Source: an uncultured Nitrososphaerales archaeon (GTDB lineage Archaea; Thermoproteota; Nitrososphaeria; Nitrososphaerales; Nitrososphaeraceae). Taken from it: 64,000 bases of DNA. The notes under the pieces were generated by a model. That model was not told where the DNA came from, made no database searches, and saw nothing but the letters and a program-made list of their open reading frames with translations. The first letter of the stretch is position 1. The number at the start of each line of letters is the position of its first letter. Where the stretch lies: NCBI GenBank assembly GCA_963713605.1, contig CAVQMO010000003.1, forward strand, positions 32,001-96,000, in the 5' to 3' direction. The translations under genes and the position numbers were made by a program. Shown piece by piece: positions 35,069 through 62,457 of this stretch.

Positions 35069-35610
35069 TCACCAATGATGTTTATCTAGTTTCCATTCGT
35101 CTGACACCACTGCTGTGCGAAGAGATGCTATGAGCTTCTGCAAAGTGGGATGGATCTTAGTTAACCTCTTGGACATCATTTATACGTCCATTGCAGCATC
35201 TCCCTATGTCTTTTCTGGAAGTTGACAGGTATAATCTGCATGTCACCTGTACGCATCAGCCAGAGCTGCTCCTCTGTGTAGTAATGGTAGTTCTCGAACT
35301 TACCTATCCTCCTCTTTAGTTCTCGGATAACTTCTGGATTTGCACCGTCTACATACAGCTTGGTAATATGGTGTCTCTGCTTCAGTTGAAGGATGTGTTT
35401 TATTATTTGATTCATTTGTGGCTTGTCAAAGCGCTTTGCATAGCAGACTTCTACCTTGTTGTTTCTGTGTTGGGTAATAACTATATCAAACTTGGATGTA
35501 TCTCCCCATGCAACATCAATACCCATACTTCTTCCAATCATCACGTTCGTAGACCAGTCCAACATTTCTTGGCCTTGTTCTTGTGTTACTATGGCCGCGA
35601 CTGATTTCAT
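35069..35610 (-). pseudogene. Terminase large subunit-like nuclease-domain fragment (copy 1)
   Basis: SMGIDVAWGD, YVDGANPEVIRELK, PVNFQKRHREML; paralogue of 41122-41800. Confidence 0.7.
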
Positions 35611-35820
35611 AATCCATTTTATAAGAAATCTGTCATTGGTCTGTTGGGGAATTAGTCAATTATGAAAGATTGTTCTCTAATATGGCACGTGACATCTTTT
35701 TCATTTGTCAGGGCCTGTTCCGGCCAGTCAGTGCGTTGGTCGCATCAATAATCTATAGATGGGATGATTAAAGTTATAAAAACTGCTTTGCAATACATAA
35801 GGTAATGACTACCATCATGG

Positions 35821-36852
35821 TTGGAATTCAGAATTCAGTTATCGGTACTGGATACCTCGGATGATTTTGAGATTAGGGAGATTTCCAAAGGTAATGACCC
35901 ATTAGGTAGGAAGTCAGATCCTCCAAGGGCCAAGCCGCCATGCTTAGCATTTGATCCTCAAAACCCCGATCGCGTATACTGGGGTACTTTCGATAATGGT
36001 CTGTGGAAAACCGATGACCGTGGCCAGTCTTGGATTGATATTGGAAAAGATACTTTTTCCAGCCCCCAATTCATGTCCATTGTGGTTAGTTCTCTTAATA
36101 GTGGGGATAGGTTTAACAAGGTATATGCGGGAACCGAGCCAAGTGCACTCTATGTTTCAAATGATGGAGGGGATACTTGGGATAGAATGAAAGCATTAAA
36201 TGATTTACCTTCATCAAAAACTTGGAACTTCCCTCCTAGACCATGGACCCATCACGTTCGTTGGATCGAACCTGATGCGATCAATCCGGATTATCTTTTT
36301 GTCGCTATAGAAGCAGGAGCTCTGGTACAAAGTCGTGATGGAGGTAAAACTTGGATAGACAGAGTTAAAGAAGGCCCATATGACACACATACTTTGGCCA
36401 CTCATCCAAAAGCGCCCAAGCGCCTCTATTCGTCTGCAGGTGACGGGTACTTTGAAAGTTTTGATTATGGAGAATCATGGACTAGACCCATGGAAGGATT
36501 GAGACATAGTTACCTTGTTGGGCTAGCAGTTGATTCAGGCAATCCTGATGTTGTAATCGTCTCAGCTTCCGATGGCCCTTTTAAATCATTTTCTCCCAAC
36601 GATGCTGAAACATTTCTATACCGGAAAGATGGTGAGGATAGGAAAAAATGGAAGGTTGTTTCAAACGGCCTTCCTGAACCAAATGGAACCACTATGTCGA
36701 TCTTATCATCGAATCAAAAGGTTCAAGGAGAGTTTTATGCCGTCAACAACCATGGTATCTTTATTTCAACTGATTCGGGTGAATCATGGAGGAAACTTAC
36801 TACTGAATGGCCAAACGAATATACTCCTTTCGCGCTTGCTGTTAGCGACTAG
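35821..36852 (+). CDS. BNR-repeat beta-propeller protein
   Basis: Multiple SxDGGxTW boxes; AGTEPSALY, WNFPPRPWTHHVRWI. Confidence 0.85.
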   Translation: MEFRIQLSVLDTSDDFEIREISKGNDPLGRKSDPPRAKPPCLAFDPQNPDRVYWGTFDNGLWKTDDRGQSWIDIGKDTFSSPQFMSIVVSSLNSGDRFNKVYAGTEPSALYVSNDGGDTWDRMKALNDLPSSKTWNFPPRPWTHHVRWIEPDAINPDYLFVAIEAGALVQSRDGGKTWIDRVKEGPYDTHTLATHPKAPKRLYSSAGDGYFESFDYGESWTRPMEGLRHSYLVGLAVDSGNPDVVIVSASDGPFKSFSPNDAETFLYRKDGEDRKKWKVVSNGLPEPNGTTMSILSSNQKVQGEFYAVNNHGIFISTDSGESWRKLTTEWPNEYTPFALAVSD

Positions 36853-37446
36853 TAGTAAAATAGGTCTAGTATTCGGTTCATTAAAGGCCATTGAAAGGTG
36901 AATCGACTGTGTCGACTATGACTAATGTTACTTGATATAGAACAGTACATGGTGCTAAGATAGTAGCCTCTGTTGCTTCATCTCTGACAAGAATAGATCC
37001 TTTGATGTTTAGTAAATTTGTTACTTGTTACAATAACAGTCTTACACACGCCCATTGGTTTAAGATTAATATTAGAAGATACATGATACATCCCATCTGC
37101 GAATATCTGACCGGAAATCACAATATTGAATCATAAATCGTAGTGCCATATTGTATTTCTTTTGCTATATCTTTTCCCAACCAAATCGATCTCTATCATC
37201 CTTAGGTGTAGATTGTCTAGTGTAATTCAGAACTAAATCGTGGTTCCATATCTTTTCATAAAGAACTCTTCATCATTCTCCAAATCAATTTTTGCAAGCT
37301 CTGCTGGTGAATAGCCATAGAATTCAGTTTGTTCTAACCCCAAAGACTTTCTGATTCCGGCCTATGTACATTTCTCATACCTTCATTATCAGAATTTCAA
37401 ATGATATAATAGATAGATATTGATCCAATTACCTTAATAAGGTGCA

Positions 37447-39508: not shown

Positions 39509-39935
39509 TCAAATAATGATTTGCTCCGGAAGGTTGGTAAGGACGTAATGTAGGGCTTCGCTGTCGAAAGGAGGAGTGGAGCATTCTATTTGGAATTGGC
39601 CCGGATCTTAATCTACTGTATCGCAGAAATAGTTATTATCTACACCAGTTGCCACTTCGACGCTGATGAATGCACTATTAAAACCGGATACGTCTGTGTC
39701 ACTTATAGTAAAGGCAGTAACAACCCCGTCAGGATCCCATTCTACTGCATGTCCGCCTGCACTATCAAAAACAACTACCTTCTTCATAAAACTCTCTGCA
39801 GATTTTGTAGAGGTAATAGTATTATCAGCGATATCGCTTGAACCTATCTGTATACGTTCGTCCGTGAAGGACCGTCTATCAGATTTCCGCTAGTATCTCT
39901 CGTCGTTATGGTGGCTGTGAAAAAAATGTTGTTCA
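39509..39935 (-). pseudogene. Orphan C-terminal cassette of the secreted protein family at 39949-40903
   Basis: TATITTRDTSGNLIDGPS..QIGSSDIADNTITSTKSAESFMKKV..WDPDG..FCDTVD*DPGQFQIECSTPP..LHYVLTNLP; no signal peptide or N-terminal domain. Confidence 0.7.
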
Positions 39936-39948
39936 GTCGGTCTCTAAT

Positions 39949-40903
39949 CTAAGGTGTGTGAGGGGGAAGAACGGTAACCACATAATGTAAAACGGAACCC
40001 TCTGGTGGTGCAGAGGAGCATACTATATCAAATCCCTCGACAGCATCGCTAGCTACATTGACTGGATCACAAAGATGGTTCGTGGAACCCAGTGGCAGAG
40101 ACTCTACTATGATACTGACCATGGTAGAGTCACCCCCAAAATGTCTGTCTTCTTCTATTCCAAAATTCGTTTGCACTCCATCAGGATTCCATCCCAGAGC
40201 GTTACCTGCTGCATTATCTTGCAACGTAACCCTCTTCATAAAATTCTCTGCAGGTTTTGTAGAGGTTATGCTGTTATCAGCTATGACATTGGCACCTATC
40301 TGTTTTATAGTATAAGCATTGGATTGAGTAGGTCCGTCAATGACGGTGTTGGCAGCGTTTCCTAGTCGTAACTGTAACTTTATAGTTAGAGCTCGGGTTC
40401 AGTGGATTGTTAATATTGGAGAATTCTAACCTAATTTTTGTACCTGCTGGTACATTTACAGCGTTTGTTACTGTGTATGTCAGCGTTTGTCCCGACTTAC
40501 TGACAGTACCAGGACCTATTCCTTCTGCCTCATTAAAGAAAGAACTACTTGGTATCGTAGTACCCGCTGGAAAGGTCACCTGTATAGTCTTGATAGCACC
40601 TGCAGTACCAGTCAGAAATACAACATCGTAGAAAGAATTAGTGTTGACAATGTTATTTGTTGGTCTAGCAGAAAGAGAAGAAAGTGCTTGAATAGTAAAG
40701 TCACTTCCATCTTGACCTATAGTCGATGGTCCTGAAGTACTACTATCAGTAGAGAAGGATGAGGCTGCTGCTGACGCAGGATTCACTAGTATAAAGATAG
40801 GTGATGATACGACCATAAGCGTAATAATCAATGTTAAACCAAGTCTTAATCCTGACCTAGTCAGCGGTTTGAACGGTGATCCTAGTGAAGATCCCCTTAT
40901 CAT
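39949..40903 (-). CDS. Secreted surface protein, paralogue A (frameshift near 40360)
   Basis: Signal/TM; SLSARPTNNIVN..YDVVFLT..VTFPAGT domain; IDGPTQS..IADNSITSTK hinge; C-terminal domain. Confidence 0.7.
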
Positions 40904-40924
40904 GTATTACAGGCTTGGTTAATC

Positions 40925-41126
40925 CGACTTATCTGCAGTTAGAGACTCTTCTCTTCCAAAGAAGTCTTAGATTTTGACTTGAAGATTCAATGTATCCATT
41001 GATATATACTATTGTGATTGCAATAACAACCTCAAAGCCTCAGATAAGACATCTCAATATTGCAGATCAACTATATTCATGACATCTGCTAATCCGCTAT
41101 ATCCTAAAGTTATCTAATGTGTCAGT
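40925..41126. repeat. Conserved non-coding block upstream of paralogue A
   Basis: 41019-41126 matches 55309-55416 at 103/108 nt; 40985-41013 is identical to 55263-55291 and contains the palindrome TCAATG-TATC-CATTGA. Confidence 0.9.
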
Positions 41127-42358
41127 TCTTTGGAGGCTCGTAGTTGCATAAGGATAGCCTGAATGAATCAAGGATATCATCATGTGATGTCTGTTGTTTG
41201 TCGAGCTTCCAATCATCTATCACAACTGCGGTCCGTAGAGACACGATTAGTTTCTGTAATGATGGATGGATCTTGATGAACCTCTTGGACATCAGTGTAT
41301 ATGTCCATTGTAGCATCTCTCTATGTCTCTTCTGAAAGTTAACGGGTATTATCTGCCAGCTGTTACTGCTTCGCAACGACCATATCTGTTCTTCCGTTAG
41401 CCTTCCGTAATAGTCATGGTACTCCCCTATCCTTGACTTGAGTTCTCTTATGACTTCTGGATTTGCGCCATCACAATATATTTTAGTACAGTGATGCCTC
41501 TGCTTCAGCTGCATGATATGATTGATGATCTCATTCATCAACGGTTTCTCGAAGCTCTCTGCATAGAATACTTCTACTCTGTTGTTTCTATATTGAGTAA
41601 TGACAATAGCAAACTTTGAAGTATCTCCCCAGGCGACATCAATACCCATACTCCTTCCTATCATCGTACTTGTGGACCAGTCCAACATTTCCTGTCCTTG
41701 CTGTTGGGTTACTATGGCTGCTTCTATATCTAGCACATGGAAGACATTGCCAACCTTTCCTAAGTACTTGAGGTTGTATTCTCGTTCAAAGCTAGGCGAT
41801 GCTTTGGCCTTCTGCTACAGTAGTAACAAACGGCAATCGATTTTCAACAGCAAAGAGGCTTTTCAGTCTGGCTATTAATCCGATGGCAAGTTCAATCCTA
41901 GGACCTGTTACGATGCACATCTGTGAACCTTTTAGACTATCATTCTTCATGCAGAGCCAAGCCATGTAACGCAACATAAATTCAGTAATGCCTAATCCAG
42001 TTGCTTTTTTGATCCAGACATGTTTATACTTCTGCAGTGTATCGAATAACAATTGTTCATAATCGAACATAGGCATAGGCTGTCCATTCTTCTGAGGTAG
42101 GCCGATGGCATGGTTGAAACAGCAAAGATTTGGGTTACTATCAAAAATCTTGTACGAAACTTTTGCGTTAGATGTAGATGAATTTTGAAATCTTATTTTT
42201 TTCGAATAAATTTTCGAAATTTCAACTTCTAAATTTGAATTAGGCCACTGACAGTAAAACGGTAGTCCCTGCAATAATTCGAATTGATTTGGTGCAGTAG
42301 TAAATCCGAATTGCTGTTCGTACCTGTCGAGTATTTTATCGAGACTATTTAATGTCAT
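41122..42358 (-). pseudogene. Terminase large subunit-like protein with internal deletion/frameshift (copy 2)
   Basis: KHVWIKKATGLGITE (Walker A variant), MCIVTGPR, then jump to KASPSFEREYNLKYLG and RNase H-like GIDVAWG...DGANP...HDDILDSFRL; no Walker B seen. Confidence 0.75.
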
Positions 42359-42810
42359 GTGTGACTAACTCATTGTTTTGAGGCACAAAACTCCTGCCTC
42401 GATATCTGTCAATAAAATCGACTGCCTTCTGAATTACGTTAGCATTGCTAAGAAGTTCTATCTTCATTTGATATGCCTGCATGCCAATTTGTAATGACTG
42501 CAACTTCTCGCGATTCTGTAATTGTTATCACACCATTGCTTGAGTTGGCAATATCCCAGGTCTTTGTTAGTATGGCGTCCAATCCCACAAGACATTTCTG
42601 ATATTCCAGTGGTAGAATTTCATTGATGTACTTGCCTATGTTTTCACGGGCCCGCTTCCGCAAATACTGCAAGTCCCTGTTTACTGTGGCTAGCCCTACA
42701 TGCAGAATAGATGCAATCTGTGGTTGGCTGCGGCCTTCGCTAGATAACTCTAATACTTTATTCCTGCGCCATTGCAGCCTTTCCGTTTCTGTGCTCAATC
42801 TTTCCACCAC
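42345..42810 (-). CDS. HTH protein, putative terminase small subunit (copy 1), frameshifted
   Basis: WRRNKVLELSSEGRSQPQIASILHVGLATVNRDL; 3' end overlaps the TerL-like start. Confidence 0.6.
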
Positions 42811-42863: not shown

Positions 42864-43629
42864 TCAAAATCCCATATGTGTCTGATTCGCTGCGATATGC
42901 TGTAAGGCAGTGCCGTGTGCAGATACCGTCGCGGAGTATTCCCCTTCATCAAAGTTTAATGTTCCATTTGAAGTATTCACAAGTATCACATCAGTTACAC
43001 CTTTCGGTAGTTCTGCATGATATAAGCACGATCTTCCCATGCTTGATAAACTGATAGTGCTATTGCTGTCAAGAGTGCCACTAATAATGGCGTTCCCAAT
43101 ATTCAAGGTCTGTAAATTAGGAACACTACCTGTTACTATATTTATTTTAGGACTTTGCAGCAGCATTACATGGCACCTTCAGAGCGATATGACTATGCCC
43201 CTCCACACTTGTAGAAAATGGGGTGAAATCCATTAATAGTACATAATCGCCATCGTCTAACTTTCCACTTAGAGGAATATGTTCTGAAACAATAAGGTTA
43301 TCAAGGGTATGGGCTGCGTGTTGCTGGGCCATGGTATTATTCACCGTTGACTGCGATAGTCCATACACATCAATGCTGATAATATGACTGATAAATCCTA
43401 CTGACAATATCGCTGCTAAAAGTATCCCAATATTCAGTACAACACTGAAACTGTGGAATTGCATATCAGATATTGAAGGAGTGAAATATTTAAGGGGTAT
43501 TGGGATCAGTTGATCTTTATGCCATTTTGGATTTTGCCCAAGCTTCTTATGCAATGATGACCATATGTAAGTACAAGTGGCAGCTAAGTGGGGGGTCAAG
43601 AAGCCCGTCAAATCCGAAGAATGGAACAC
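42864..43629 (-). CDS. Secreted hypothetical protein, frameshifted near 43160
   Basis: TM; LSGKLDDGDYVLLMDFTP..HIALKVPC..LSSMGRSCLYH. Confidence 0.6.
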
Positions 43630-43943
43630 AACAGGTTGTTACTGACGCTGCAGATGGTTCCTACCATCTTCAAGTCTTTGTAAATGGAAGTTGGATACAC
43701 GACTATAGATGTAAAGAACAGACGAACAAGGACTGCAAAAAGAAATAAGAAAATAGGAAATTGTCGATGCATTCCTTTTGTGATAGTCCTCTTTCATCCT
43801 TGTCTCAAAATGGTAAATTCCTTATGGTTTCTGACAGGATCCGAAAGCCAACCTAAAAGTTCTTCTAAAACCTTATGTTCCATTGGTCCAGCACCATTAT
43901 TTCAATACACCCAGTTGTAAAGTGTTTTCATCTATCAGGGGCC

Positions 43944-45407
43944 TCATGTAATCCGGAAACATTGACTTTGAACGAATCCGCTTCGCTTCTGATATCCAAC
44001 TGGGCAGTATCCGCCTGGAAGTTGCGATGTTAAATCGTCGTTCGTTAATTTAAGTGCGTCAAGTTTACACATGTTACCGCCAGGAACAGGAGCAGTAGGA
44101 GTGGGAACCTTATGATAACTTGGTGGGCAGCTCCCATCTGGAAGCGGATCATGAATTTTAAGGCTACAACGGTCGTTGTTTACGCCGCTAGGAAAATATC
44201 CTGACAGACAGCTTCCATCTGGGGCTCGATAGTTAGGCTCCTCTTCAAAACATAACGAATGCTGCTTCTCTGTGATATGAACTCCACCATCATTAATTGC
44301 ACACTCGCCTGCAGGTAGATATCCTCCGGTTTGTGGGTCAGGGCAAAAACCATAAATATCATGTCCACCGCTACGGTCATTAGGGTCTGCTCCTGGACAT
44401 GCCGGTGCGTGAAAAGAGCCATCATAACACTTTTGCGTAGGTGGATCAAAAACACCATTACAGCTTCCATCTGGATCCACGGGCTTTTCCTTGATACCTC
44501 CACCTGGTGGTACTGGTGGTAGTCCCAATCCACCACCTCGCATATCAATTCCCGGACACCTACCATTATCATCTATTGGTAGGGGTGGACATGTCTCTTG
44601 AGTTAGACGGAGCAATGGATCGATTTGTTCTGTAGGAGTTGCTGGCAGAGTATCAGTTGGAGGCTGTTCTGGAGGTGTGTTGGTTGGAGGAGTTGCTGGT
44701 GGAGTTGCTGGTGGGTTATCTAAACGACAATTAACAAATCCAGTTCCAGGCTGACCCGCATTACCTGGGCTTCCACCTGCTTCATGAGATCCTGCTGGGC
44801 ACTCTCCGTTTACTGCAGGTACATATTGCGAGGGAGTTGTACCACCTGTACTACCACCATCAGTATTAGGAACGGTATCTTTCTCACATACTTGGCTTCC
44901 TGGAAACTTGTGAGATCCTTCTGGACAGGTGCCATCAGCATTGGGCATTACTAGCATATGACTATCTTGTGTTGGTGCAGTCGCAGGTGTGGGGCAATTA
45001 CCATTAGCATCAGGCGTTGAACCATCAGGACAGGTTGTTTGCTGATTTGATTCGGGAGGGGGCGTTAAGCCTTCAGTTTGTTCTTGTTGGGATATATCTG
45101 GAACACAGAGATTCGCATTCTCATCAAGATGCTCGCCTGCTGGACATTGGATGCCTTGGTCACCAGTACCCTCATCTGGAATAGGAGTGTCGCTATCACC
45201 TGAAGGGCCACCACCTTCGTCATCGTCCGCACCTTGGTCGTTACCGCCTGTATCTCCGCCATCACCGCCTGTATCTCCGCCATCACCTTCGTCACTTCCT
45301 CCATCTGAAGAGGCCAGTAAACCAGTGTCATTTATCGTGATGGAAGAAAAACCTAATGACTCAATAAGGGAAATACCAAAGCGAAGCTCAGAATTAAGGC
45401 TAGACAA
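43944..45407 (-). CDS. Cys/Pro/Gly-rich repetitive extracellular protein
   Basis: About ten (DG)xCPxG motifs, GGD and PPAT low-complexity linkers. Confidence 0.7.
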   Translation of the reverse strand: MSSLNSELRFGISLIESLGFSSITINDTGLLASSDGGSDEGDGGDTGGDGGDTGGNDQGADDDEGGGPSGDSDTPIPDEGTGDQGIQCPAGEHLDENANLCVPDISQQEQTEGLTPPPESNQQTTCPDGSTPDANGNCPTPATAPTQDSHMLVMPNADGTCPEGSHKFPGSQVCEKDTVPNTDGGSTGGTTPSQYVPAVNGECPAGSHEAGGSPGNAGQPGTGFVNCRLDNPPATPPATPPTNTPPEQPPTDTLPATPTEQIDPLLRLTQETCPPLPIDDNGRCPGIDMRGGGLGLPPVPPGGGIKEKPVDPDGSCNGVFDPPTQKCYDGSFHAPACPGADPNDRSGGHDIYGFCPDPQTGGYLPAGECAINDGGVHITEKQHSLCFEEEPNYRAPDGSCLSGYFPSGVNNDRCSLKIHDPLPDGSCPPSYHKVPTPTAPVPGGNMCKLDALKLTNDDLTSQLPGGYCPVGYQKRSGFVQSQCFRIT

Positions 45408-46049
45408 CCGTATTGCTTTGACATGGAATTAGCTATAACATGAGCCTATTAAAGTTATAGAACATTTTATGGAGATATATCATAACTTCTAACCTAAAAA
45501 TGGTATATATTACTTTAGTTATCGTTTTGTGGAAGTTTGAAATCCATACCGTAAACGTCTGCTGTCATTACCTCAACTTACAACGCGTCAATATTCTAAT
45601 GAAGACTAGAGAGACATCCTAACTGCTTTAGTGTGATGTAACGTTATCAGTAATTCTTCGGAGCCTAAAGCCCAATACCCAAGAGACCTAAAGGTAATAC
45701 TAAGAAGAAACGTTGAAGATATTGAGTCATAGCTCGATGCTGCATTCCCATTGTATCCCATCTCACCAGTGCTGATCCTTGGAGGGTGTCTATAGCAGTA
45801 TCAGATGCTACCAGTTTAAAGAACTTGGGGCATAATGTTACACTTATGCTCAACTCTCAACTGCCAAGAGAAAGTTAGGTACTGATTAATCAAAGGCTTG
45901 CAGTAGAGGCTTGTGAAATGCATTCTCGAATACCATCGCGCTAGCGATAGTTGGAATTAGAAATGCTTGTAACTACTGCCAAAGCTGAGGAGATAACCTA
46001 AGCCAGAGAAAAACGAAGTGACAAGACCGTTTCCACTCATTCGCTTCCG

Positions 46050-46700
46050 TCCTCGCTGCTGCCACCAATAGTTCCGTTAGTAGCCAAAGTTAGTAAAGGT
46101 CCAAATGTAACACCGTTATCAGGTACTCACTCTCATAACAGGTGTATCGTCCGTAGCATTCGTTTCCCACCATGTAACCACGACACTATCCGCCTCTGAA
46201 TCTATCTCCGCTCGCGTAGAATCTGCATCAGTTGTATTACTCAAGTTGATCTTATCTCCGAAAGATGTACCACCATCGGTAGATGCCCTGAATAATACCT
46301 CATCATTGCCTGTCTCGTTTGTCCACCATGCTACATACACGTTGTCACCTGTGATAGCAGGAGGTGCTTTTTTCTCAGCAATTATGGACTCCTCGAATCT
46401 TAACTCTGCTAACTGGGGTCTTTTCTCGAATTCAAGATGACCAATCCCTGCTCCAGCGTCTTCTACAAGTCTTTCCTGATCTTGTGATGGGAGTGAAGGT
46501 TGGCCATAGGCTGATTGTATAATCGGATTGCCTAACACCGACGACAACAAAAGGACTGCACTGCCTGCAATAGCTAATAACCAAGTTTTTCCAGCATAGC
46601 CCTGATTGCCTTTATTGGCTCTTCTCATCTGCTTGGATACAGAACAATGCATAAGAAATCTTCGGGTTAAAAAACAATGATATTTGCATGGTTCAATCAA
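46050..46700 (-). CDS. Secreted BNR/Asp-box (sialidase-like) protein
   Basis: Signal; FRASTDGGTSFGDKINLSN; probable frameshifted tail NGVTFGPLLTLATNGTIG. Confidence 0.7.
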
Positions 46701-46895: not shown

Positions 46896-47204
46896 TCAAA
46901 GATTCTTTGGTGGCTCATAGTTGCATAAAGAGAGTCTGAATGAATCTAGAATATCATCATGCGACGTCTGCTGCTTGTCTAGCCTCCAGTCGTCTATTAC
47001 AACTGCAGTCCGCAGAGATACTATCAACTTCTGCAGTGATGGATGTATCTTGATGAATCTTTTAGACATCAATGTATACGCCCATTGTAGCATCTCTCTG
47101 TGTCTTTTCTGGAAGTTGACTGGGATGATCTGCATGTCTCCGGTTCTCATCTGCCAGAGCTGCTCTTCTGTATAGTAGTTATAGTTCTCAAATTCGCCTA
47201 TACG
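46896..47204 (-). pseudogene. Terminase large subunit-like C-terminal fragment (copy 3)
   Basis: IIPVNFQKRHREMLQW...SHDDILDSFRLSLCNYEPPKN, nearly identical to copy 2. Confidence 0.75.
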
Positions 47205-50137: not shown

Positions 50138-50863
50138 GTGCAAAATGCTTCCGGAGCAACTTTCATCGTTAAAGAGATGGCAAAGCACCTTGGTAACTTG
50201 CTATTTGTGAATGGTGTATTCACATTCCTTGTTCGCAAAAGAACAAAATCAGGAGCAGAGTACAATATCAAGTTAATTGGACAGCCGACTAACTACTTTA
50301 AATTTAGCGCCGCCATCATCGGCATATCGTTTGCGGTTATTGCAATTTTAATTGTATATGTATTCACTCAAAACGTAATGATAGTAATTGCTGCTGTATT
50401 CATTTCTCTTGGGACGGGGCGACAGATCTTTGCCTCGGCGCTGGATGTCGTAACAACTAACCTGAACACCTTCTTGTCATCTTGGGCATCAACTCTTCTA
50501 TTGCTTGCAAAAAATAGGCTGATGGTGACGACGACAGATTGGCGTTCCATAGAAAGGCGAATCGAGCTGATACTCATGAGCAGGGGGCTTGGGTATAATT
50601 TGCCTGTTAAATTTGATGGGGTGAAACCAGAATCTCAGCAAATATTATTAGAGTATCTGGATGAGCATAAATGGGAGTTAGAGTATCAACAGCCTATTAC
50701 AGATGATGATTCTAGCTGCCTTGCATTTGTCCAATACGAAACTAAAAAGATGAAAGAGAAGTTGCAGATATATGATGATCTGGAAGAACTACAGGAAAGG
50801 AGTGGAGGCGTTAACGCAGTAATCCTGATAGCATTGGGAACGTTGATTTGGTTAGTTTCATAG
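50138..50863 (+). CDS. Membrane hypothetical protein
   Basis: 241 aa, 2-3 TM segments. Confidence 0.55.
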   Translation: MQNASGATFIVKEMAKHLGNLLFVNGVFTFLVRKRTKSGAEYNIKLIGQPTNYFKFSAAIIGISFAVIAILIVYVFTQNVMIVIAAVFISLGTGRQIFASALDVVTTNLNTFLSSWASTLLLLAKNRLMVTTTDWRSIERRIELILMSRGLGYNLPVKFDGVKPESQQILLEYLDEHKWELEYQQPITDDDSSCLAFVQYETKKMKEKLQIYDDLEELQERSGGVNAVILIALGTLIWLVS

Positions 50864-51255
50864 TTTTGGCACTACTGGCAGTTCTAAAAAGAGACTCAAT
50901 AGTAATAACATAAACCTAGCTATTATAGAAGGGCCAAACTATCGAATGTTAATACCAGAACTTTTGAAATAACCTTCGCATTTGGTGACAGGCAATCTTC
51001 CTTCTTTCGTCAAGCGCCTTGGTTTGGAAGTTCATAGTTGCATAGTGACAATCGAAACGAAGCAAGTGTCTCAACATGAGATGTTTGCTGCTTGTCTAAT
51101 CTCGTCATCTAATACCGCTGCCGTTCTTAAGGAGACTATCAACTTCCGAGCGGAGGTTATGAGAATTCATGATTCAAAATTTCACTTGTAACAAACATAA
51201 TGTACTAATGAAAATAACATTATGTTTTAGCATGTGTGTAGCAAAAAAATGCTAC

Positions 51256-52430: not shown

Positions 52431-52738
52431 TACCTCCTCGAATAGGAGATAGTCCTTTTAGTTTGACCTTAAGAGAATTTTGATTATTTCTGTCTTTCGA
52501 CATTCGATTTTACTGGATTAACCTAGTATTTACATTTTTTTTAACAACGGTAGTGTGGTGCAACATTATCGTTAGCCTACATAGTGCACATTCAAAGTCA
52601 CTCCATAGGCAATGAAGTTGACCCGCGAAGTTTACGTCCTCTTTCCGAAGCCTTTTAAAGATTGGAGCAGCCTCTACACCTGCCTTATGACCGAGACAGA
52701 TCGTTATTGCCAGAGTTTTCTTCTGAACCGTCTAAGTT

Positions 52739-53062
52739 TCATTCCCCTTTACGCTCTAAAGGTAAGTCGGATTTGTTCCGCCGGAACGCGATCCAAATGC
52801 TAGATGCAACTAGGGAGAGAACGCAACCTATAAAAATGTTCTGGATCCTTTCTAAAGGTGCAGCTGTCGGGTCTGTTGTTGGGTATGAGATTTCATCAAA
52901 AAGAAGTAACGTAACGGTCATAAAGATGACAAAAAAGGCGTAAGTAGACGACCAATCGTAAAATGGTAAACCTTTCAGTAGCTCAAACTGCTTAGTTTCG
53001 ATACTACCTAGCTGCTGTTGGTCGTATTTATCCAGTATTTTTGATAAGTTCTGCAGAGTCAC
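52739..53062 (-). pseudogene. Chimera: TerL-like N-terminus fused to a FUSC-like membrane protein C-terminus
   Basis: MTLQNLSKILDKY..QFELLKGLPFY matches the 42358 start; followed by YAFFVIFMT...ERIQNIFIG. Confidence 0.6.
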
Positions 53063-53145
53063 TATTAACCAAACTCAATGAAATGTATTAGTTCTTAGAC
53101 TTATTAACATCATCATACCCTCCTTTTCTTAACTGGAAATGAGAA

Positions 53146-53590: not shown

Positions 53591-54082
53591 TCAAATAGTA
53601 CTGCTACTGCTGCTGTCCGATTTTTCATTGGTAATAGAAGTAGTATTAGTGTCTGTTAGTATTTCATTATTTTCAGTAGTCAAACCCATGTTCCTATTCC
53701 TGTCAACAAATTTCACTGCCCAATCTACTACAATAGCAGAAGACAAGAGGTCAAGCTTCATTTCATAGCATTCCTTTGCCAGTGACAAGGCTTGCATTCT
53801 TTCCCTCTTGTCTGAATCTGTTCCTGATGAAATGGCCCAGGCTTCTTGCAAGATGTCATTTAGTCCATCAAGGCAGTTCTCATATTCAGCTGGCAGATAA
53901 TCTTCTAGGTATTTTGAAATGTTGTCTTTTGTTTTTAACCTTAGGTGTTGCAAGTCTTCATTGACCAGAGCTAAGGATACCTTCAATGTGTCTGCGAGTC
54001 TTCTCTGAGTAAAGCCTTTAACAGAAAGCTCTTTTACTTTATCGCGTCGCCATTGAATTCTCTGTTCACTTTTTGCGCTCAA
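53591..54082 (-). CDS. HTH protein, putative terminase small subunit (copy 2)
   Basis: WRRDKVKELSVKGFTQRRLADTLKVS..VNEDL..LPAEYENCLDGL; paralogue of 42345-42810. Confidence 0.6.
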   Translation of the reverse strand: MSAKSEQRIQWRRDKVKELSVKGFTQRRLADTLKVSLALVNEDLQHLRLKTKDNISKYLEDYLPAEYENCLDGLNDILQEAWAISSGTDSDKRERMQALSLAKECYEMKLDLLSSAIVVDWAVKFVDRNRNMGLTTENNEILTDTNTTSITNEKSDSSSSSTI

Positions 54083-54202: not shown

Positions 54203-55177
54203 TTAGGGTAGGGCCGGCATGCATTCTGCTAGGGACGTGAAAGAATGAGCTATACTGTCAGGATTGAACATAATCACATACCATGAATCTTCGGTTCCGA
54301 ATTTTTCCTCTACGTATACCTGCAACATGTACGGTCCAGCGTAAGACATGAAGTATGCCCCTCCTACGACCCGTTCTCCGTCAAGGCAATCCGCAATTGA
54401 GGACCCAATGGTGTGGGGAGTTACAGAGACAGTTGGACCATTTCTTTCAATGACGGATGGAATGATTGAGCCGCTAGCTATCTTTGCAGTTGTAACAGCA
54501 CCATCAGCTATCTTTGGAGTTGTTATAGCATTATTTGCTATTGCATTCGTTCCAATTTGCTGTATCAAATATCCGGTAGATTGTGTTGGTCCGTCTATCA
54601 CGGCATTAGCAGCATTTCTAGTCGATACAGTAACATGGTACGCATTATTTGGAGTTATTGGGTTTACAATATTTGCGAACTCTAACCTTATCTTTGTCCC
54701 TACAGGTACGTTTACGGCATTGGTTATTGTATACGTTAAGGTTTGACCGGATTTACTTGTACGTACCTGTTAGTATGGTACAGTTACCGCCTGGCACGCA
54801 TTTCTCCGCCTCATTAAAACTAGCACTAGATGGTTACTGGTACCAGGTGGAAAAGTTACTTCTATTTTTTTGATTGTCCCAGTTGTAGCTGTCAGAAAAA
54901 CAACATCATAGAATGCTTTTCTGTTAACTATGTCATTTGTAGGTCTTGCACTGAGCGAGCCAATAGCTGCTTGAGTAGTAAAATCGCCATCTTTTCCCTC
55001 TTGGCTGATTGTCGAAGGTGCTGACGGGACTGTGCTGATGGTGGGCAAAGGTGAAGAAGAAACCGAATCTGTTCTCGCCATAGTTGTTGGGTTAGTAAAA
55101 ACAACCGTGGATGATATCATCATAAGCGGAATAATCAATATTAAGCCAAGCCTGCTGAATGACTCTCGTGTTATCAT
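54203..55177 (-). CDS. Secreted surface protein, paralogue C (frameshifts ~54750-54840)
   Basis: Same N-terminal domain and IDGPTQS hinge as paralogue A; unrelated C-terminal domain (ADCLDGERVVGG...AECMP). Confidence 0.7.
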
Positions 55178-55199
55178 GTATGTAGCAAAGATTTGACAA

Positions 55200-55416
55200 A
55201 TCCATCTTATCTGCGGTTAGAGACTCTTGTTACCCATATTAGTCATAGATTTCGTCTTGAACATTCAATGTATCCATTGATATATACTATTTAGACTAAT
55301 GCCAGAACTGCAATAACAACCTTAAAGCCTCAGATAAGACATCTCAATATTGCAGATCAACTATATTCATGACGTCCGCTAATCTGCTATATCCTAAAGT
55401 TATCTAATATGTCAGT
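55200..55416. repeat. Conserved non-coding block upstream of paralogue C
   Basis: Second copy of 40925-41126. Confidence 0.9.
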
Positions 55417-55722
55417 AGTCAGGCGATATTCACTGAATCTATGATGATGCATATCAGATATTGAAGAAGTGAAATATTTAAGGGATATTCGGACTCTTCA
55501 GTTTCTACTTCCTGTGCTATCATCGCAAGAGTCTTGTGATTGTTGATGATAGATTGTTCTTGAATGAAAGTCATGGGAGTCATGTTTAGAAAGTGATTTG
55601 ACTTGTGGGTTTTGGTATTCCCTGGCTGCAAGACAAACACTTTTTTTAATTTGCGTTTTTCTTCCTTTGCTTAATTTTCCGCTCGATTGATTGGACAATA
55701 TACAAGTTCCTGAACTACATTC

Positions 55723-56526
55723 TCAGGCGACAGTTCCTACCATCTGAGGATGAAGGGTACAGTGATAGGGGAACGTACCATACTGAACAAAGTTAAGAGT
55801 GAACGTGGCACCAGGACTTAAGATATTCGAATCAAAGACTTGTCCTGATCGTGCTGTCCCTGTGACAGTATGAATCTGGGTATCATAGTTGATCCATGTT
55901 ATTCCCGTCAGTATATTCACATATATCGGATTTGGTTGAAAGGCCTGATTACCTCTAGTTGCTGCGTTTGGCACAATTGATACTGGAATGGTCGGAGGCA
56001 TTAAAGTGAATGGTTGTTGTGGTATCGGTGGTGGTAGTGGTTGTTGTTGCAATGAAGGTGGTAGTGGTTGTTGTTGCAATGAAGGTGGTAGTGGTTGTTG
56101 TTGCAATGAAGGTGGTAGTGGTTGTTGTTGCAATGAAGGTGGTGATTGCAAAGGCGTTTGTGGTTGCTGCTGCAATGCAGTACTAGGTATCTCTACAGTA
56201 GTTCCATTTGCACTAGTACCATTAGTGCCATTGGTAGCCTGCATAGTCTGATTATCTGATGTACCGTTTGTTTGGTTGGAGACTGCACTATCACTAGATG
56301 TCGCATTAACTTCCTGAGGCTCGTCCTGAGTTTGGTTTATTACGTTGAGAAGACTGCTATTACTGCTTATTTGCTCCTGAGACGGTTGTAGAGTAGAGTT
56401 ACTTAGTTGCGCCAATGTGTATTTAATAATGGATAGTGGAATAGAGTCCGATTTGGTTGATTGAATGGTCGCTAAATAAACAAGAATACCCAGTATTACT
56501 ACTATCGTCATAGTAGTTTGATTCAA
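55723..56526 (-). CDS. Secreted cupredoxin/plastocyanin-domain protein with Pro/Gln linker
   Basis: WINYDTQIHTVT, FDSNIL, YHCTLHPQMVG type-1 Cu ligands. Confidence 0.9.
   Translation of the reverse strand: MNQTTMTIVVILGILVYLATIQSTKSDSIPLSIIKYTLAQLSNSTLQPSQEQISSNSSLLNVINQTQDEPQEVNATSSDSAVSNQTNGTSDNQTMQATNGTNGTSANGTTVEIPSTALQQQPQTPLQSPPSLQQQPLPPSLQQQPLPPSLQQQPLPPSLQQQPLPPPIPQQPFTLMPPTIPVSIVPNAATRGNQAFQPNPIYVNILTGITWINYDTQIHTVTGTARSGQVFDSNILSPGATFTLNFVQYGTFPYHCTLHPQMVGTVA
56030..56143. repeat. 27-bp perfect tandem repeat, 4 copies plus a partial (PPSLQQQPL)
   Basis: GGTGGTAGTGGTTGTTGTTGCAATGAA repeated. Confidence 0.95.
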
Positions 56527-59276
56527 ACTAAAATGTCCTGTACAGAGAAATATATAAGGTTTCTAGGCTGGATTAGGTATCCTGGTGGGTGTATTCGCAT
56601 TACTGGCCTGCAATAGTATTTGAAGAGTCTGCTAGTTCTTTGCTCAGCCTTGAATAACAATTCAGAAATTAGGCCTGCGGCCTTTGCAGTTTTTAGTTTA
56701 AAATCGTCATCGACTGTTACTATAACCTCTAGCCTTTCTTTAACCTCGTTATTCTTATCTTCTATTGTTTGTAGCTCTTTAGTACGTTCAAGCTCTTGCT
56801 CTATTACTTCCTTTGCGCCTTCCAGTAATTTATCAAGATGATCATTGATAGGTTTCAGTAATTTAACTTTTAATAGTTCGAGTTCTGTTATTGCATCCCT
56901 TACTTCTTGAGGATAAAACTCATCATTGTCTGGAATTGTTACAACTTCGTTTAGGTTGAATCCATCAGGAGAGAATTCCGGCAATTGCATCTGATGTAAA
57001 AGATATTCCCAGAATCCTTCACCACCAACCTTTTCTACAATGCTATCTAATTCTATACGGTGATCCTTCAGGTATTCGTCTGTAATTTGTGTGCCTGGTG
57101 GGGGTAGGTATTCTTCCTCAACGTCTTCCTCTTCTATATCAAACCCATTTTCCTGTAACCACTTTACCGTGTCTCTAGTAATGCCTATCCTTGGAGTTGG
57201 TGTCCTTGTCTCGTTGGATATATCGATACCAATACCGTCATAGTCGGTTAATGTCCAAACAATTGAACCTATCTTCTTTATCTCTTCTATTAGATCTTTA
57301 CCATATTCGGTAAGCCTTCCCTGTGTGTGGACCAATGCAATATGGTATTCTTGCGCAAAAGAGGCTAAGACGTCCGCTATTCCTTCTTTCTCGATTACAA
57401 GTATTGCAATCCCTTTATCTGCAAGTTGTTTAACATTGTCTATATCCACGGGATATGATTGACCATTGTAAAGCATAGTAGCCCTTGCAGACGCAACAAT
57501 TCCAAGTTGTTCTCTCGTTATGTTTTCGTCAGGCCATAATTCCTGACATGTCTTCATAATACTATTTTGTAGAGTTGATCTAGTGGTCCCCCAGTCCTTT
57601 GGAGGCTCAAATTTGTCCTCTATCATGATACGTCTAACGCGATAAAAAACACCTGATTGAGTAAGTCGATCGCCGGATCTTAATGATGGATCTGCTTCGA
57701 CTTTTTTGCGCCTATCTCGTAGGAAGTTTCTAAGATAGTCTATAGCTACTTTTCTTTCTTCATCTGGCTCACTCTTACTACTCTTACCGACGCCATAGCC
57801 GTGAAATGTCGGTATTTTTCCCATAACTTTACTTATGGTTTCTGCAATGGTACTTGCAAATGGATCTATTACGAGTGTTGATTTACCTTGGTCTCGCCAT
57901 TGTACCTTTGGAGTTAAAAGATTGGATACGATAACACATGGATGCGTTTTACTCGAGTCCCTTACACTATAGCCATACCAATAATCTAGAATGCCAGTCA
58001 TATTCCAGGCTTGGCAATCTTTGCCTTTCTTCCTAAAAGTGTAATACCCGTCGTAGAGACTCATACCTTTGTTGACTATGCTAACTGAATTATTAATAGC
58101 ACCGATGAATGTTGGACGGTTACTCCATATATCACTAAATGGTATAACCATGACCTCAAACACATATGGAAAATTTACTTTCCCATCTTCGGATATATGT
58201 CTAGAATGCGTAATTTTGTATTCTGCTTTATTTATTGGTTTGACTGGATATGTTGTTGCTATTCTCTTAAACAATGCGTCCTTCCTTAACTCGTCACTCT
58301 CCTTATCGCCCCCATATGGGTACTGAAAGGTTCTTCTTCGGTCTGCTGTGTTCCTTTAACTCTGTTAGTAGGCCCGTCTTTTCGATTGTAGATAATTCAT
58401 TTAGTTTCTTCTGTGTCCACTCCTTAGGTAACCATTTTAATTCTCTAAACCCTGTTAAAGCTGTAGAAACAAAGATAGACTGATCTGCGAGATTCTCGAT
58501 AAAGATTAGGAATTCATTGTCCGTATAGGCCCAGGCGGTGACCTCGTTCGTCCATGTATTTGATGCAATTGCATTGCTTGGAGTATTGATCTTCTCACCA
58601 TTGAAATCAAAGAAAAATCTGATGTGCGTAGAAAATAGCGAATAATTCAAACAATATTCTTTTAATTCATCTACGAGGTCAGTACCTTAGCCCATCTTTT
58701 GGAACCGAGATACTAACTTCCGTATAGGGTGCCTGATTTTGGGGTCTTGGCTCGGTATCTATTACCGCTTCCAGTTTGCTAGCAATAAATTTGCTAGTAT
58801 CGAGTGATATCTTGGATCGTTGTTTATTGTATGTAATTGTGAGTGGAGCGAGCTATCCCGTTGAAAACATGTCCCTTCTCATAAAGCATTGCATAAGGAA
58901 TTGATAATTTGGGTTTAGTTGCATCCCCTATTGCACCACGACCTATCCTAAATTTATTTTTCTTTGTACTTGTAAAGTATTCATAATTAACAATGTCACA
59001 GAGGTTTGTCTGAAGTGCAGTAGGATTATTATTTGGATTTGAATTTCTTACTGTAAAAATAAGGTCGGTGTCGTTTGTTTGAACAAATACACTGACTGTT
59101 CGCATATCACTGGCATTCAAGTACGTATTCTCAAGATAATCCGTCGCGTTATCCAGATCTTCCTTGGCAATGTAAAAATGGAAATGTGATGAAAAGGTGC
59201 CTATGTGTTCAGTCAAACCCTTAAGAGTCATATACCTTGACCAGCTCTGGCTTGACCTTGAAACTAGATCTTTCAT
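56523..59276 (-). CDS. Fused type IIB topoisomerase (Topo VIB-like plus VIA-like, Topo VIII-like), frameshifted
   Basis: GHKL: KEDLDNATDY, GRGAIGDATK, TEVSISVP, YSLFSTH; transducer region DQGKSTL; WHD TQSGVFY; Toprim LVIEKEG, TQGRL, LTDYDGIG, RIELDSI. Confidence 0.75.
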
Positions 59277-59587
59277 GGTTAGACGGGCATATGCATTTTT
59301 TGACGATTTCTAATGTCTTATCGACAAGTCGATCCTTACGAAATTCTTTCAGTATCGATGTCTTTATCTCCAAGTTTTACGATAAAGATATCAGTAGTAT
59401 GTACGCTAGGCATAAGGGATAACTTCTCCTCCTCCCTGGATGAAACTGTCGTAGACGAGACGTTCCTCGTTCAGGTAGCAGTGCTGATATTGATATAGAT
59501 TAGTCCAGCTACTATGAAAGCAAGTTTGCAAAGGACGTGGATGTGGTTGATTGGTCTCTACGACATCCAACTCCCCTTTCGTCACAG

Positions 59588-59770
59588 TCATTGCTCCTTC
59601 TCGATCCAAATTCTGCTACCTTCTTGCTTTACTCGGACATAGTCGCCCTTTCCTATCCCCAAGTCTAGGGCATATGACTTAGGAAGGATGATCGACAGTG
59701 AGTTTTCGCCGACTATACCCTGGACTTTTCTTATTGAATATGGATTACTCATAACTATCGATAAATTCAT
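59588..59770 (-). CDS. AbrB/MazE-family DNA-binding protein
   Basis: IRKVQGIVGENSLSIILPKSYALDLGIGKGDYVRV. Confidence 0.85.
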   Translation of the reverse strand: MNLSIVMSNPYSIRKVQGIVGENSLSIILPKSYALDLGIGKGDYVRVKQEGSRIWIEKEQ

Positions 59771-60033: not shown

Positions 60034-61161
60034 ATGTATCCTGATCCTTCTATCGAAAGAGACAGTATTCTTGCTAATACTCTATATAAAGATCTTCAAG
60101 CGGTTGATCCTCATACAGAAATACAGAGGGAACAATATGAGGCGAGATGGTTTGAGGATACTAAACATGAAAAAAGAATCTTGCAGAGAGTAAAAAATAA
60201 CATTGCAAATGATATGAAGCTAATGAAGAGCGCTTCAAACAGGTGTGAGAAAAGATACGCCGAGGCCGGTTATCAATGGTCTTTTATGGATTATCCTATA
60301 GAGCAGAGAATAAGGGCGCCTACTGCTGAGCACATGCATCTCTCGAGGTTTAGCATTAGCTTACGCTACGCTGCTATTCTTTTTACAGCACTCTCTCATC
60401 TTGCAAGAGAACGTAGATTACCTCCGCTTCTTGGATATTCTGAGTCTCTCTACGCACTTGCGATCTATAGTGTGTTTAACAGATTTAGGTATATTATAGA
60501 TGCGAGAAGCCGCAGAACCATGAAGGAGTGGTCAAGGACAATAGATACTAGGATAAAACATGGTTACAATGCCGCGGCTTCGCTAGCGAGAAATATGACT
60601 GCCCCGCTATGCAGCCGGTGTCACAGCCAGGGATTCAACAGCATCCCGCAAATGAGAATACTACATAAAGATGATGGTTCGTCCAAATGGTGTTGCACTC
60701 GTTGTGGGGGAACAGAAACTCTGCGAGTTCGGTTCACAGCGGAGAACATCAGGAAAAGAGAATGCAAGGTGGCATCAGATTTGGAATTATACATAGAAAA
60801 TGCACCGTTTTACGAGGATTTCAAGCAGATATTTTTGGCGTGCTTAGAGAATAGCAGCAAACTGAGGGAAGATCTTGCAAGGGAATTTGACAGACAAGAA
60901 ATCGAATCCAATAAGCTTTCATTCCATACTCGCTACTCGTTCTTCATCCAGCATTATGATCCAGTCAAAAAGGGCAAGAGAAGATGTTCTATCCCGAAGA
61001 ATGGTATCGTAGAAATCACTGTTAACGATTCAACCTACAGAGAATGCATTAGGTCGTTGGCCGACTTCGCCGACCGAATTGACACCAGAACGCGTAAGGT
61101 TAGAGGCTGTGTGTGCTGGTCGTTTGAAAGAGTTAAGGTTTCCAATGGAATATGCTTATGA
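60034..61161 (+). CDS. Hypothetical basic protein with a zinc ribbon
   Basis: 375 aa; CSRC...CTRCG. Confidence 0.65.
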   Translation: MYPDPSIERDSILANTLYKDLQAVDPHTEIQREQYEARWFEDTKHEKRILQRVKNNIANDMKLMKSASNRCEKRYAEAGYQWSFMDYPIEQRIRAPTAEHMHLSRFSISLRYAAILFTALSHLARERRLPPLLGYSESLYALAIYSVFNRFRYIIDARSRRTMKEWSRTIDTRIKHGYNAAASLARNMTAPLCSRCHSQGFNSIPQMRILHKDDGSSKWCCTRCGGTETLRVRFTAENIRKRECKVASDLELYIENAPFYEDFKQIFLACLENSSKLREDLAREFDRQEIESNKLSFHTRYSFFIQHYDPVKKGKRRCSIPKNGIVEITVNDSTYRECIRSLADFADRIDTRTRKVRGCVCWSFERVKVSNGICL

Positions 61162-61275
61162 TAAGGTTGAACATGATATGAAGATGCACCTTAGCAATCA
61201 CTAGAAGAAAGCTAAGAAGCAACCAAAATGTATGGCATCAAATAGCTTATTGTTCCTGTTTAAGGGATATAATGA

Positions 61276-62457
61276 TTAACCTGATTTCTGCCTGAGTATT
61301 TGAACTTCTCCCAGTAACTGATTGATCTTGTCGCTGAGGTTTGCAATGGCGTCTGTATTGATTTCATCTCGTTGCCTCAAGAGGCTTATCTCTTGTGCCT
61401 GTTCAGTCTCTAACCTATCTACTTGATTCCGTAGTCTGTGAGACTGTTCGATTGTCAGCAATGGAATAACACGTACGTACTCTGATAGACGATCCTCTTC
61501 GCTAGTCCTATCATAACTTGGGTCAGTACACGAAAGTCTATGACCGACGAGATACTCACGTGAATTGTAGTCAAGTTTTGCTTTGATTGCTTGGGCCACC
61601 CATGCTTTTCTTATTCCATGACTGCGTCTTACCTCAGTTGTCTTAACTCCTGAACGTTTGAGGACCTGCTCTACCAAGTGTAGTACCATCCTCTTAGACA
61701 GGGGCCGAGGTGAGTGAATACGAATCTTGTCGTTTACATTGAACTGTTCTCTGATTAGAGGACTTGTCCTTTTAGTAGTATCCTCACCAAATCCCTTTCT
61801 ATAATCCAGATATGCGTCTATCGCCTTAGCACATTCTGGAGTGCAGAATGTATAATAACGGTCATGTTTTGAATGGGCATAGACTTGAATCTTGTATAAA
61901 TCATATTCTAGAATCTTTGTTAGATGACCTATCTGCAATGAATGGATAGCACCTATCCTCATTCCAGTAGAAACCATAAGCAGAATGATTACTTTGGTTC
62001 GTTCATCAAAGCATTTATCTAAAATCTGTTGAATCTCTTCTGTGGTGTAGGGCCTATCTTCCTGTGTAGATTCGTCGGGTGGCAGGAACCTTTTGAACTT
62101 CTTTCGACTTGCTATTGAGATTGGAAAGTCGTTCAAGTCAAAGAAGTGCAGTATAGCAGCAATGTGAACCTCTATAGACATCCGTTTTAATCCTTCTGAG
62201 TCACGTAAATGCTTCACATAATCAACTATGAACGAGTCGATAATCTTTGGGTTATATTCTAGCAACACCTGCAGGTCATGAATCTTGGTATAATCTAGAA
62301 AATGTTTGAAGTTCCTACTGTAAGCAACTTTTGTGTCAGGAGACTGAAGTCCTTCTGTTACTGCATAGACTATCGAATAGTCTTCATCAAAGCTCATTAT
62401 TTGAGCATGATTTTTGGGAGATCCAACTTCAGCCTCAGCGCTTTGTTCTTGCTTCAT
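61276..62457 (-). CDS. Tyrosine recombinase/integrase, intact
   Basis: STGMRIGA (R), SHGIRK (HxxR), LVGH, DPSY (Tyr); SAM-like N-terminus. Confidence 0.92.
   Translation of the reverse strand: MKQEQSAEAEVGSPKNHAQIMSFDEDYSIVYAVTEGLQSPDTKVAYSRNFKHFLDYTKIHDLQVLLEYNPKIIDSFIVDYVKHLRDSEGLKRMSIEVHIAAILHFFDLNDFPISIASRKKFKRFLPPDESTQEDRPYTTEEIQQILDKCFDERTKVIILLMVSTGMRIGAIHSLQIGHLTKILEYDLYKIQVYAHSKHDRYYTFCTPECAKAIDAYLDYRKGFGEDTTKRTSPLIREQFNVNDKIRIHSPRPLSKRMVLHLVEQVLKRSGVKTTEVRRSHGIRKAWVAQAIKAKLDYNSREYLVGHRLSCTDPSYDRTSEEDRLSEYVRVIPLLTIEQSHRLRNQVDRLETEQAQEISLLRQRDEINTDAIANLSDKINQLLGEVQILRQKSG

Follow-up and report, generated by a model that had tools for sequence, protein, structure and literature searches.

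Borders of the island and its terminase genes

The 64,000-nucleotide stretch analysed here (the window, G000:C3:32001-96000) belongs to a 4.09 Mb, 87% complete assembly of an uncultured Nitrososphaerales archaeon, a soil ammonia oxidizer, and the closest named records with its terL family carry the titles of Nitrososphaerales or Nitrososphaeraceae archaea. The window contains a genomic island of 33.1 kb (30305-63432) between 15-bp direct repeats, with a tyrosine integrase, a topoisomerase, an AbrB-type regulator, and TerL-like and TerS-like genes (large and small terminase subunits) on the minus strand. A first-pass annotation had named these parts at or near the same coordinates, in an element spanning 35069..62457; the repeats mark a larger unit. 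The features that define the island and its terminase content are:

29996-30319, plus strand: host gene of 107 aa, conserved; integration targets its 3' end, stop codon included
30305-30319, plus strand: attL, 15-bp core CTTATTGGAACCTAA, with an exact copy at attR
63418-63432, plus strand: attR, 15-bp core
30368-31162, plus strand: broken tyrosine integrase (PF00589) next to attL, with the same start after the site in G007, G008 and G010
35069-35598, minus strand: frameshifted terL remnant, residues ~286-462, without the last two nuclease aspartates
41122-42358, minus strand: longest terL remnant, residues 1-134 and 255-483, Walker B region deleted, with PHROG terminase matches
42345-42810, minus strand: TerS-like gene, helix-turn-helix (HTH) and helical hairpin, one frame change
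46896-47237, minus strand: terL 3' remnant, residues ~373-483, native stop at its end
51013-51148, minus strand: short terL 3' stub
52734-53068, minus strand: terL 5' tip (~40 codons) fused to a FUSC-like fragment that is 98% identical to C10:223883-224092
53591-54082, minus strand: TerS-like gene, open frame of 163 aa, with a SnoaL gene between it and the terL tip
61276-62457, minus strand: intact tyrosine integrase (PF00589, E 4e-11), of a type found beside intact terS-terL pairs

The core CTTATTGGAACCTAA occurs just twice in the genome at up to one mismatch (30305 and 63418). Two relatives (G005 and G006) have an empty site, in which the host gene (ending at 30319) adjoins a DNA ligase gene (ending at 63526), and run X3 carries the empty-site junction. 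An integrase and site-specific insertion, both characteristic of phage-inducible chromosomal islands (PICIs), are present. No tRNA or Rfam RNA was found inside the island. Contig cover of the region is patchy; one error-free contig differs from the window at one base, in the topoisomerase B-like gene. A circle of this island, considered for a loose end before attL in run X4, was rejected, as that end mismatches the attR flank. G013 carries an unrelated metabolic island of 11 kb at this site, between similar att copies and with neither integrase nor terminase (L246:4498-15615, on contig C26); we describe the site as an integration hotspot filled in trans.

The integrase that had been annotated as intact is whole, and is joined by the broken gene at 30368-31162, likely the original integrase for this att site. 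The broken integrase is of a different type and also follows the site in three relatives, so that the island is composite. Between the intact integrase and attR lies a frameshifted gene (62776-63204) with at least 5 paralogues in the genome, which matched no family. To the left of the island are a further integrase remnant, of the same type (4349-4744), and a terL middle fragment (~2434-2557); in G010 (L225), an integrase-topoisomerase element lies near homologues of the genes on this flank.

All four TerL-like pieces of the first-pass annotation exist, with a fifth at 51013-51148; none is whole, and none could encode a working enzyme. Numbered on a full-length reference (L008, 486 aa), the best copy lacks residues ~135-254, and the others are a C-terminal half, two C-terminal tips and an N-terminal tip. 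In the last of these the terL part covers 52951-53068, fused to an unrelated membrane-gene fragment. The four 3' pieces are 73-83% identical where aligned, and therefore come from different elements, not from one recent duplication. The island is a composite of dead remnants from several elements, and a single working element with repeated modules is not supported.

Over 28,352 aa of conserved genes, the assembly shows 28 frameshifts (27/80 genes are interrupted), or about 1 per 1000 aa, core genes such as TFB, EF-1alpha and AlaRS included. Single-base breaks may therefore be sequencing errors and were not taken as decay; the large terL deletions are unlikely to be such errors. Contigs C2 and C13 share long stretches at 99.9-100% identity, which suggests assembly duplication and slightly inflated copy counts.

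Fold and selection of the terminase family

The structure of a full-length TerL relative (486 aa) was modelled with AlphaFold from an alignment of 67 relatives (pLDDT 83). The model matched T4 gp17 (E 7e-16) and HK97 TerL (E 2e-12), as well as the D6E and Sf6 TerLs, over both domains, with a predicted N-terminal ASCE ATPase and a predicted C-terminal RNase H nuclease fold. The terminase fold that had been proposed is thus borne out by the model. A profile match was obtained to PHROG2 terminase (E 2e-22); a PDB sequence search returned nothing useful, the structural kin having been identified by the fold search. The Walker A motif of the family, KKATGLGITE, is also found in IMG/VR viruses that have portals, and we take this unusual motif to be akin to the lambda gpA type.

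The TerL search returned 3226 relatives. Trees were built with FastTree, and trees and counts exclude 6-12 loci that were double-fetched or came from this genome. TerLs from loci without head genes formed a 79-row clade (SH 92) separate from viral TerLs. Among 81 intact capsid-less terL genes, the catalytic residues were nearly invariant (K83 and D180 each in 80/81, E181 in 81/81, four nuclease aspartates in 79-81/81). The median dN/dS was 0.095 (maximum 0.37, 59 unsaturated pairs); judged from these alignments, the intact headless copies are under purifying selection.

The TerS-like genes fit a small terminase subunit in their architecture (HTH and helical hairpin) and in their place upstream of terL, seen in 40/59 loci. 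Fold searches with the TerS-like protein gave no significant match, and Atlas returned only unnamed Nitrososphaerota clusters; the alignment is too variable for a scan of viral contigs. About 16 TerS-like genes in the genome have no terL beside them, and intact elements frequently carry cargo between their terS and terL genes.

Absence of head genes and distribution of the family

No portal, protease or capsid gene was found among the 34 open reading frames (ORFs) of the window searched with PHROGs, as had been annotated, or in the whole 87% complete genome. The tail-like signal in the window is confined to short repeats, at 54203-54601 and in the collagen ORF, that match tail-fibre profiles.

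A survey of 151 Nitrososphaeraceae genomes found the TerL family in 96, including 13/13 of this genus, a portal in 2/151 and 6/151 by two profiles (7 genomes together) and a capsid in 5/151; in these tallies related genomes do not count as independent, many of the assemblies are in fragments, and a capsid of great divergence could escape detection. The TerL tally takes in one unpublished genome, G099, on which no other result depends.

Clustering of 2094 ORFs from 186 loci placed the portal, protease and capsid families almost exclusively in viral loci; the TerS-like family was confined to non-viral ones. The sole exception among the head families is a protease-like gene in L050 (L050:6410-10796, G013:C169). 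There, TerL is followed by a 228-aa ORF, the prohead-protease-like gene (E 7e-145 to the viral cluster) and an integrase, without portal or capsid, in what may be a provirus-satellite intermediate.

Head genes were present in 3/38 full-length TerL loci from outside IMG/VR with 5 kb downstream, vs 17/17 IMG/VR loci. All three are proviruses, with TerLs that group among viral TerLs or close to them, and 35/38 are without the portal and HK97 capsid genes that, beside terL, would identify a Caudoviricetes provirus. In a simple-decay account of the terminase genes, one proposed for NitKor-E1, a cryptic integrated element of Ca. Nitrosopumilus koreensis AR1 (PMC6563490, in the text available), they are relics of head-tailed proviruses that have lost their structural genes. 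True proviruses with a related TerL do exist, and in this genome every copy is broken, with stops in 34/117 stubs and gaps in 77/117. Such decay is nevertheless difficult to reconcile with the low dN/dS of the headless copies, with the large headless clades, with the 35/38 loci without head genes, and with the lack of any portal or capsid remnant among the 147 terL-derived segments of this genome. Since intact capsid-less copies mostly have a TerS-like gene and an integrase and no heads, we reject simple provirus decay, which we regard as highly improbable.

TerS was present in 19, an integrase in 20 and a primase or helicase in 10 of the 25 headless loci that have 5 kb of flank on each side. 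Intact elements are typically ~10-15 kb, in the order integrase, primase/helicase, TerS, TerL, cargo (L008, L044, L046, L190, L191, L193 and L203), and their cargo comprises defence, metabolic and secreted genes. An IS-like transposon was considered and rejected: there are no conserved termini, and homology ends at the terL stop codon and ~50 nt before terS. Candidate helpers within the Nitrososphaeraceae are L053, L200 and L205.

Three further loci are of note. In L197 (12647-19040, G041:C146), GmrSD-HEPN and NurA-like genes lie straight behind terL, as defence cargo in the slot. In L202 (12571-17949, G093:C43), a 1792-aa family B DNA polymerase fusion is directly upstream of a TerS-TerL pair, and a second, broken pair lies 7 kb downstream. 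L045 (1648-10017, G016:C21) has a viral-clade TerL, and behind it two paralogous genes of 319 and 344 aa and a glycosyltransferase; no portal was recognised in 7 kb.

terL 3' ends across the genome

A short model built from terL 3' ends detected ~126 of them in the genome and 0 in the reversed genome. Because a model built from ends is circular, 90-nt windows built solely from intact genes were used as the test, each recovering 78-79/80 intact genes and thus equally sensitive. Those from residues 45-225 (ATPase) gave 3-8 matches, and those from residues 450-480 gave 93. The genome contains 147 terL-derived segments, of which 0 encode a whole protein, and 21% of it lies within 5 kb of one. Decay has spared the terL 3' end, and the ends recur as a repeat across the genome and are not peculiar to the island.

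Ends also outnumbered Walker B regions in 8/10 further genomes, which had been selected as copy-rich (at least 125 vs 28, 50 vs 17, 39 vs 3, 48 vs 7, 31 vs 5, 23 vs 13, 59 vs 13 and 66 vs 8).

In this genome, 69 terL-end neighbours lay less than 10 kb apart, vs 33 at random, and 60/69 were co-oriented. Ends stood at the border of a duplicated block in 29/126 cases, vs 12.2 at shifted positions (2.4x), the blocks starting -43 to +18 of the end. Sequence past the terL stop diverges at once among copies. Three integrase fragments lead directly into a co-oriented terL end, and one such junction is copied at five sites; these junctions point to internally deleted derivatives that were still mobile. 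The suggestion that terL copies act as recombination anchors is partly supported by the clustering, co-orientation, block borders and junctions, but a conserved DNA site was not found.

The ends could instead be active sites in cis, either a pac-like cut zone for packaging start or an integrase target, in which case the stubs would be made by the transfer step itself and not by deletion, and the arrays would form an integron-like cassette system. The strong co-orientation and the start points of the duplicated blocks would fit, as would the 48/60 short ends that begin in one 90-nt zone and the frequency of gene 3' ends as thaumarchaeal integrase targets (14/68 in the available text of PMC6563490). 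Against this, the ends have no fixed 5' boundary or junction motif, the pile-up of short lengths is partly a detection limit, and intact genes show no conservation at the DNA level. Only 6/22 integrase loci lie within 1.5 kb of an end, the spacings of 0.3-10 kb are far under a headful, flanking genes show no orientation bias, and the decay is visible. In an integron-like array, a dedicated recombinase would act at a conserved site where the crossover is fixed; neither such an enzyme nor such a site was found. We consider an active cis site unlikely.

Two roles for the stubs were also rejected. For a role as cargo promoters, the downstream ORF was co-oriented in 57/118 and the upstream ORF in 58/112. 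For a role as expressed portal-blocking peptides, the stubs have the stops noted above and an ATG in 23/57.

Cargo, topoisomerase and other features of the island

The remaining features of the island are:

31349-34787: secreted cargo, comprising an Ig-like protein of 236 aa, small secreted proteins and a collagen-repeat fragment
35717-36859, plus strand: BNR/beta-propeller cargo block; an 86% identical copy on contig C10 starts 15 nt behind a terL end
39700-41121, minus strand: secreted multicopy cargo immediately behind a terL stop, its leader common to 55180-55416 and C1:1163622-1163827
42864-46700, minus strand: cargo, comprising a split gene of 160+100 aa, a 487-aa Cys/Pro-rich protein and a 193-aa secreted protein
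47359-50896: cargo, comprising a split secreted protein with 35-36-aa repeats and a 241-aa membrane gene
54203-56526, minus strand: cargo, comprising a second copy of the multicopy secreted gene with the terL-downstream leader, and a cupredoxin
56523-59309, minus strand: Topo VIII-like type IIB topoisomerase, B-like and A-like genes, with frame changes
59591-59734, minus strand: AbrB/MazE-type regulator, 47 aa (PF04014, E 4e-5)
60034-61161, plus strand: orphan of 375 aa and no family, present once in the genome, with a Zn-finger-like motif

The cargo between the terminase modules had been called secreted. A hydrophobic N-terminus (15-residue hydropathy of at least 2) was found in 11/18 cargo ORFs, and is missing from BNR, SnoaL and others. 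The 241-aa membrane gene has 88-93% identical copies at three other places, at least 2 of them beside terL remnants. The secreted family at 39700-40903 and 54203-55177 is represented ~18 times in the genome, many of the copies less than 3 kb from a terL remnant; tail-fibre profiles match its short repeat (E 5e-7), and the family could be one of surface or receptor-decoy proteins. The orphan at 60034-61161 lies opposite the integrase, and in L225 and L239 the same slot holds unrelated ORFs of similar size.

The topoisomerase has the two-gene form seen in relatives, with at least 3 frame changes in the window copy. The B-like gene has a GHKL box (GxxGxA), and the A-like gene has FYxxR, with the catalytic Tyr followed by Arg at +3, the Toprim E...DxDxxG and RIELDS; Atlas assigned PF21180. 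The Topo VIII-like assignment of the first-pass annotation therefore fits by motif, for a pair of genes broken by frame changes. Topo VIII is itself a type IIB enzyme known on mobile elements, with the same GxxGxA box, Tyr+3 Arg and E...DxDxxG, and with split forms (PMC7671362, in the text available); it differs in having RVELNAM in place of RIELDS, and the likeness of the two-gene form here is drawn from motifs. The topoisomerase occurs in 40/151 family genomes and is absent from 25/25 well-flanked intact capsid-less loci; it is an exchangeable module of the elements. A second Int-Topo-TerS-TerL element, with related cargo, is present at C10:9775-19461.

Discussion

We think it probable that the island consists of stacked, decayed copies of a widespread capsid-less integrative element that spreads as a satellite in the heads of helper viruses, with deletion and recombination. 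For the family as a whole, the best reading is that of PICI-like archaeal satellites that bring their own TerS and TerL and would be packaged in helper capsids. This agrees with the packaging-only, satellite-like element proposed in the first-pass annotation, given the terminase fold and the intact copies that lie mostly outside proviruses. The window copy is a relic: no terL in the genome is whole, so it cannot package itself.

In an intact element, helper infection would lead to excision and replication. The element TerS would recognise its own DNA and the element TerL would dock on the helper portal, packing that DNA into empty heads of a head-tailed virus. Because both terminase subunits are self-supplied, the element would depend on the helper for heads and tails alone. 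Once integrated, it would lose its middle part while the terL 3' end, which borders the cargo slot, would stay; cut-down derivatives could still be copied to new sites, and cargo would likely be swapped by recombination in the last 100 nt of terL, giving co-oriented arrays.

Several observations weigh against the satellite reading. The TerL tree lacks a resolved root. The assignment of TerS is weak: among PDB structures G20c TerS matches best, at E 0.33, there is no profile match between the TerS-like gene and a viral TerS candidate, and in this genome TerS-like genes are mostly apart from terL, with 5/45 terL loci having one upstream. A replication gene was recognised in just 10/25 headless loci. 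Terminal repeats indicating circular contigs were found in 0/111 loci, no element was observed inside a virion or in circular form, and for 24 intact elements searched for att pairs only chance-level repeats were obtained. With regard to the terL ends, the best shifted control reached 24 against the 29 block borders observed, and intergenic spots attract alignment ends anyway; two of the ten other genomes show no excess of ends (G100, 8 vs 9; G148, 12 vs 15); and intact genes show no synonymous-site constraint at the terL end. A portal or capsid was found in 0/13 genomes of this genus, for which no helper is known, and no IMG/VR contig has a TerL of more than 45% identity, in a database that selects for viral hallmarks.

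The last two points also favour a repurposed terminase, on plasmid-like islands that make no use of capsids. There, TerS-TerL would cleave or translocate DNA in some other process, which may be excision, resolution, transfer through vesicles or pores, or antiviral cutting of packaging intermediates. The 13 genomes of the genus have many terL copies and no portal or capsid, close TerL relatives are missing from IMG/VR, cargo often lies between TerS and TerL, and some elements have the plasmid-type Topo VIII. Yet the elements retain an unaltered ATPase domain, nuclease domain and virus-type Walker A, the gene order agrees with that of bacterial satellites, and head-tailed viruses of soil ammonia-oxidizing archaea are documented (PMC11849493, in the text available). 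Repurposing thus seems to us rather unlikely, and we retain the satellite reading.

Among known satellites, the PICIs, including the Staphylococcus aureus pathogenicity islands, are similar in their integrase, regulator, cargo behind the packaging gene, size of ~10-15 kb and lack of tail and lysis genes, and probably in TerS and primase-replicase, as far as the available text of PMC10085698 describes them. They differ in using TerS only, with the TerL of the helper, whereas the archaeal elements encode their own TerL and have no recognised capsid-morphogenesis gene. No AlpA/MerR/Stl regulation module was recognised, the window having only the AbrB/MazE-type gene. The primase-replicase of PICIs has its counterpart in the 10/25 intact loci above; the window has none, with the topoisomerase there instead. 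A dependence on a helper would be a further likeness. Capsid-forming PICIs (cf-PICIs) also carry TerS and TerL, but encode capsid, portal, protease and head-tail joining proteins, none of which is found here (PMC10085698, in the same text). VEIMEs borrow capsids and have a tyrosine integrase, a primase and sometimes TerS, but use the helper TerL (PMC9618062, in the text available). The archaeal satellites pSSVx/pSSVi, SRCE and NMV2S likewise borrow capsids; in the descriptions available, SRCE and the pSSV elements are parasites of spindle-shaped viruses, and NMV2S is 3.8 kb with no terminase named.

The closest precedent is NitKor-E1, which is thaumarchaeal, has a tyrosine integrase, TerS and TerL, no other viral gene and short att sites, and belongs to a group that uses gene 3' ends as integration targets (PMC6563490, in the text available). 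The same 2019 survey, within that text, stated that non-viral elements had yielded no terminases and called this lone archaeal case a likely relic. By description, NitKor-E1 is a single enigmatic case, unlike the large, selected multicopy family with genome-wide terL-end arrays found here. No description of the family beyond NitKor-E1 was found in full-text literature, in which subscription journals are mostly uncovered, and the annotation files of PMC6563490 could list further terminases. A family of PICI-like archaeal elements with their own TerS and TerL is thus apparently undescribed.

A more far-reaching version, in which the terminase of a satellite fills helper capsids while its terL 3' end acts as a portable cut or recombination handle, would make an integron-like engine of genome expansion out of a packaging gene. 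We hold this to be possible but doubtful. If true, accessory cassettes stacked behind terL handles in co-oriented arrays would touch about one fifth of a 4-Mb genome.

The window itself contributes exactly placed att sites, together with alleles that are empty or filled differently. The relic reading of 2019, as given in the available text of PMC6563490, is overturned by a capsid-less terminase family that is under selection and occurs in about two-thirds of Nitrososphaeraceae genomes, and a TerL match in these genomes does not equal a provirus. If the satellite reading is true, the family would be a large one of satellites of head-tailed archaeal viruses, and it may offer a testable path by which genes spread and genomes grow in abundant soil nitrifiers.

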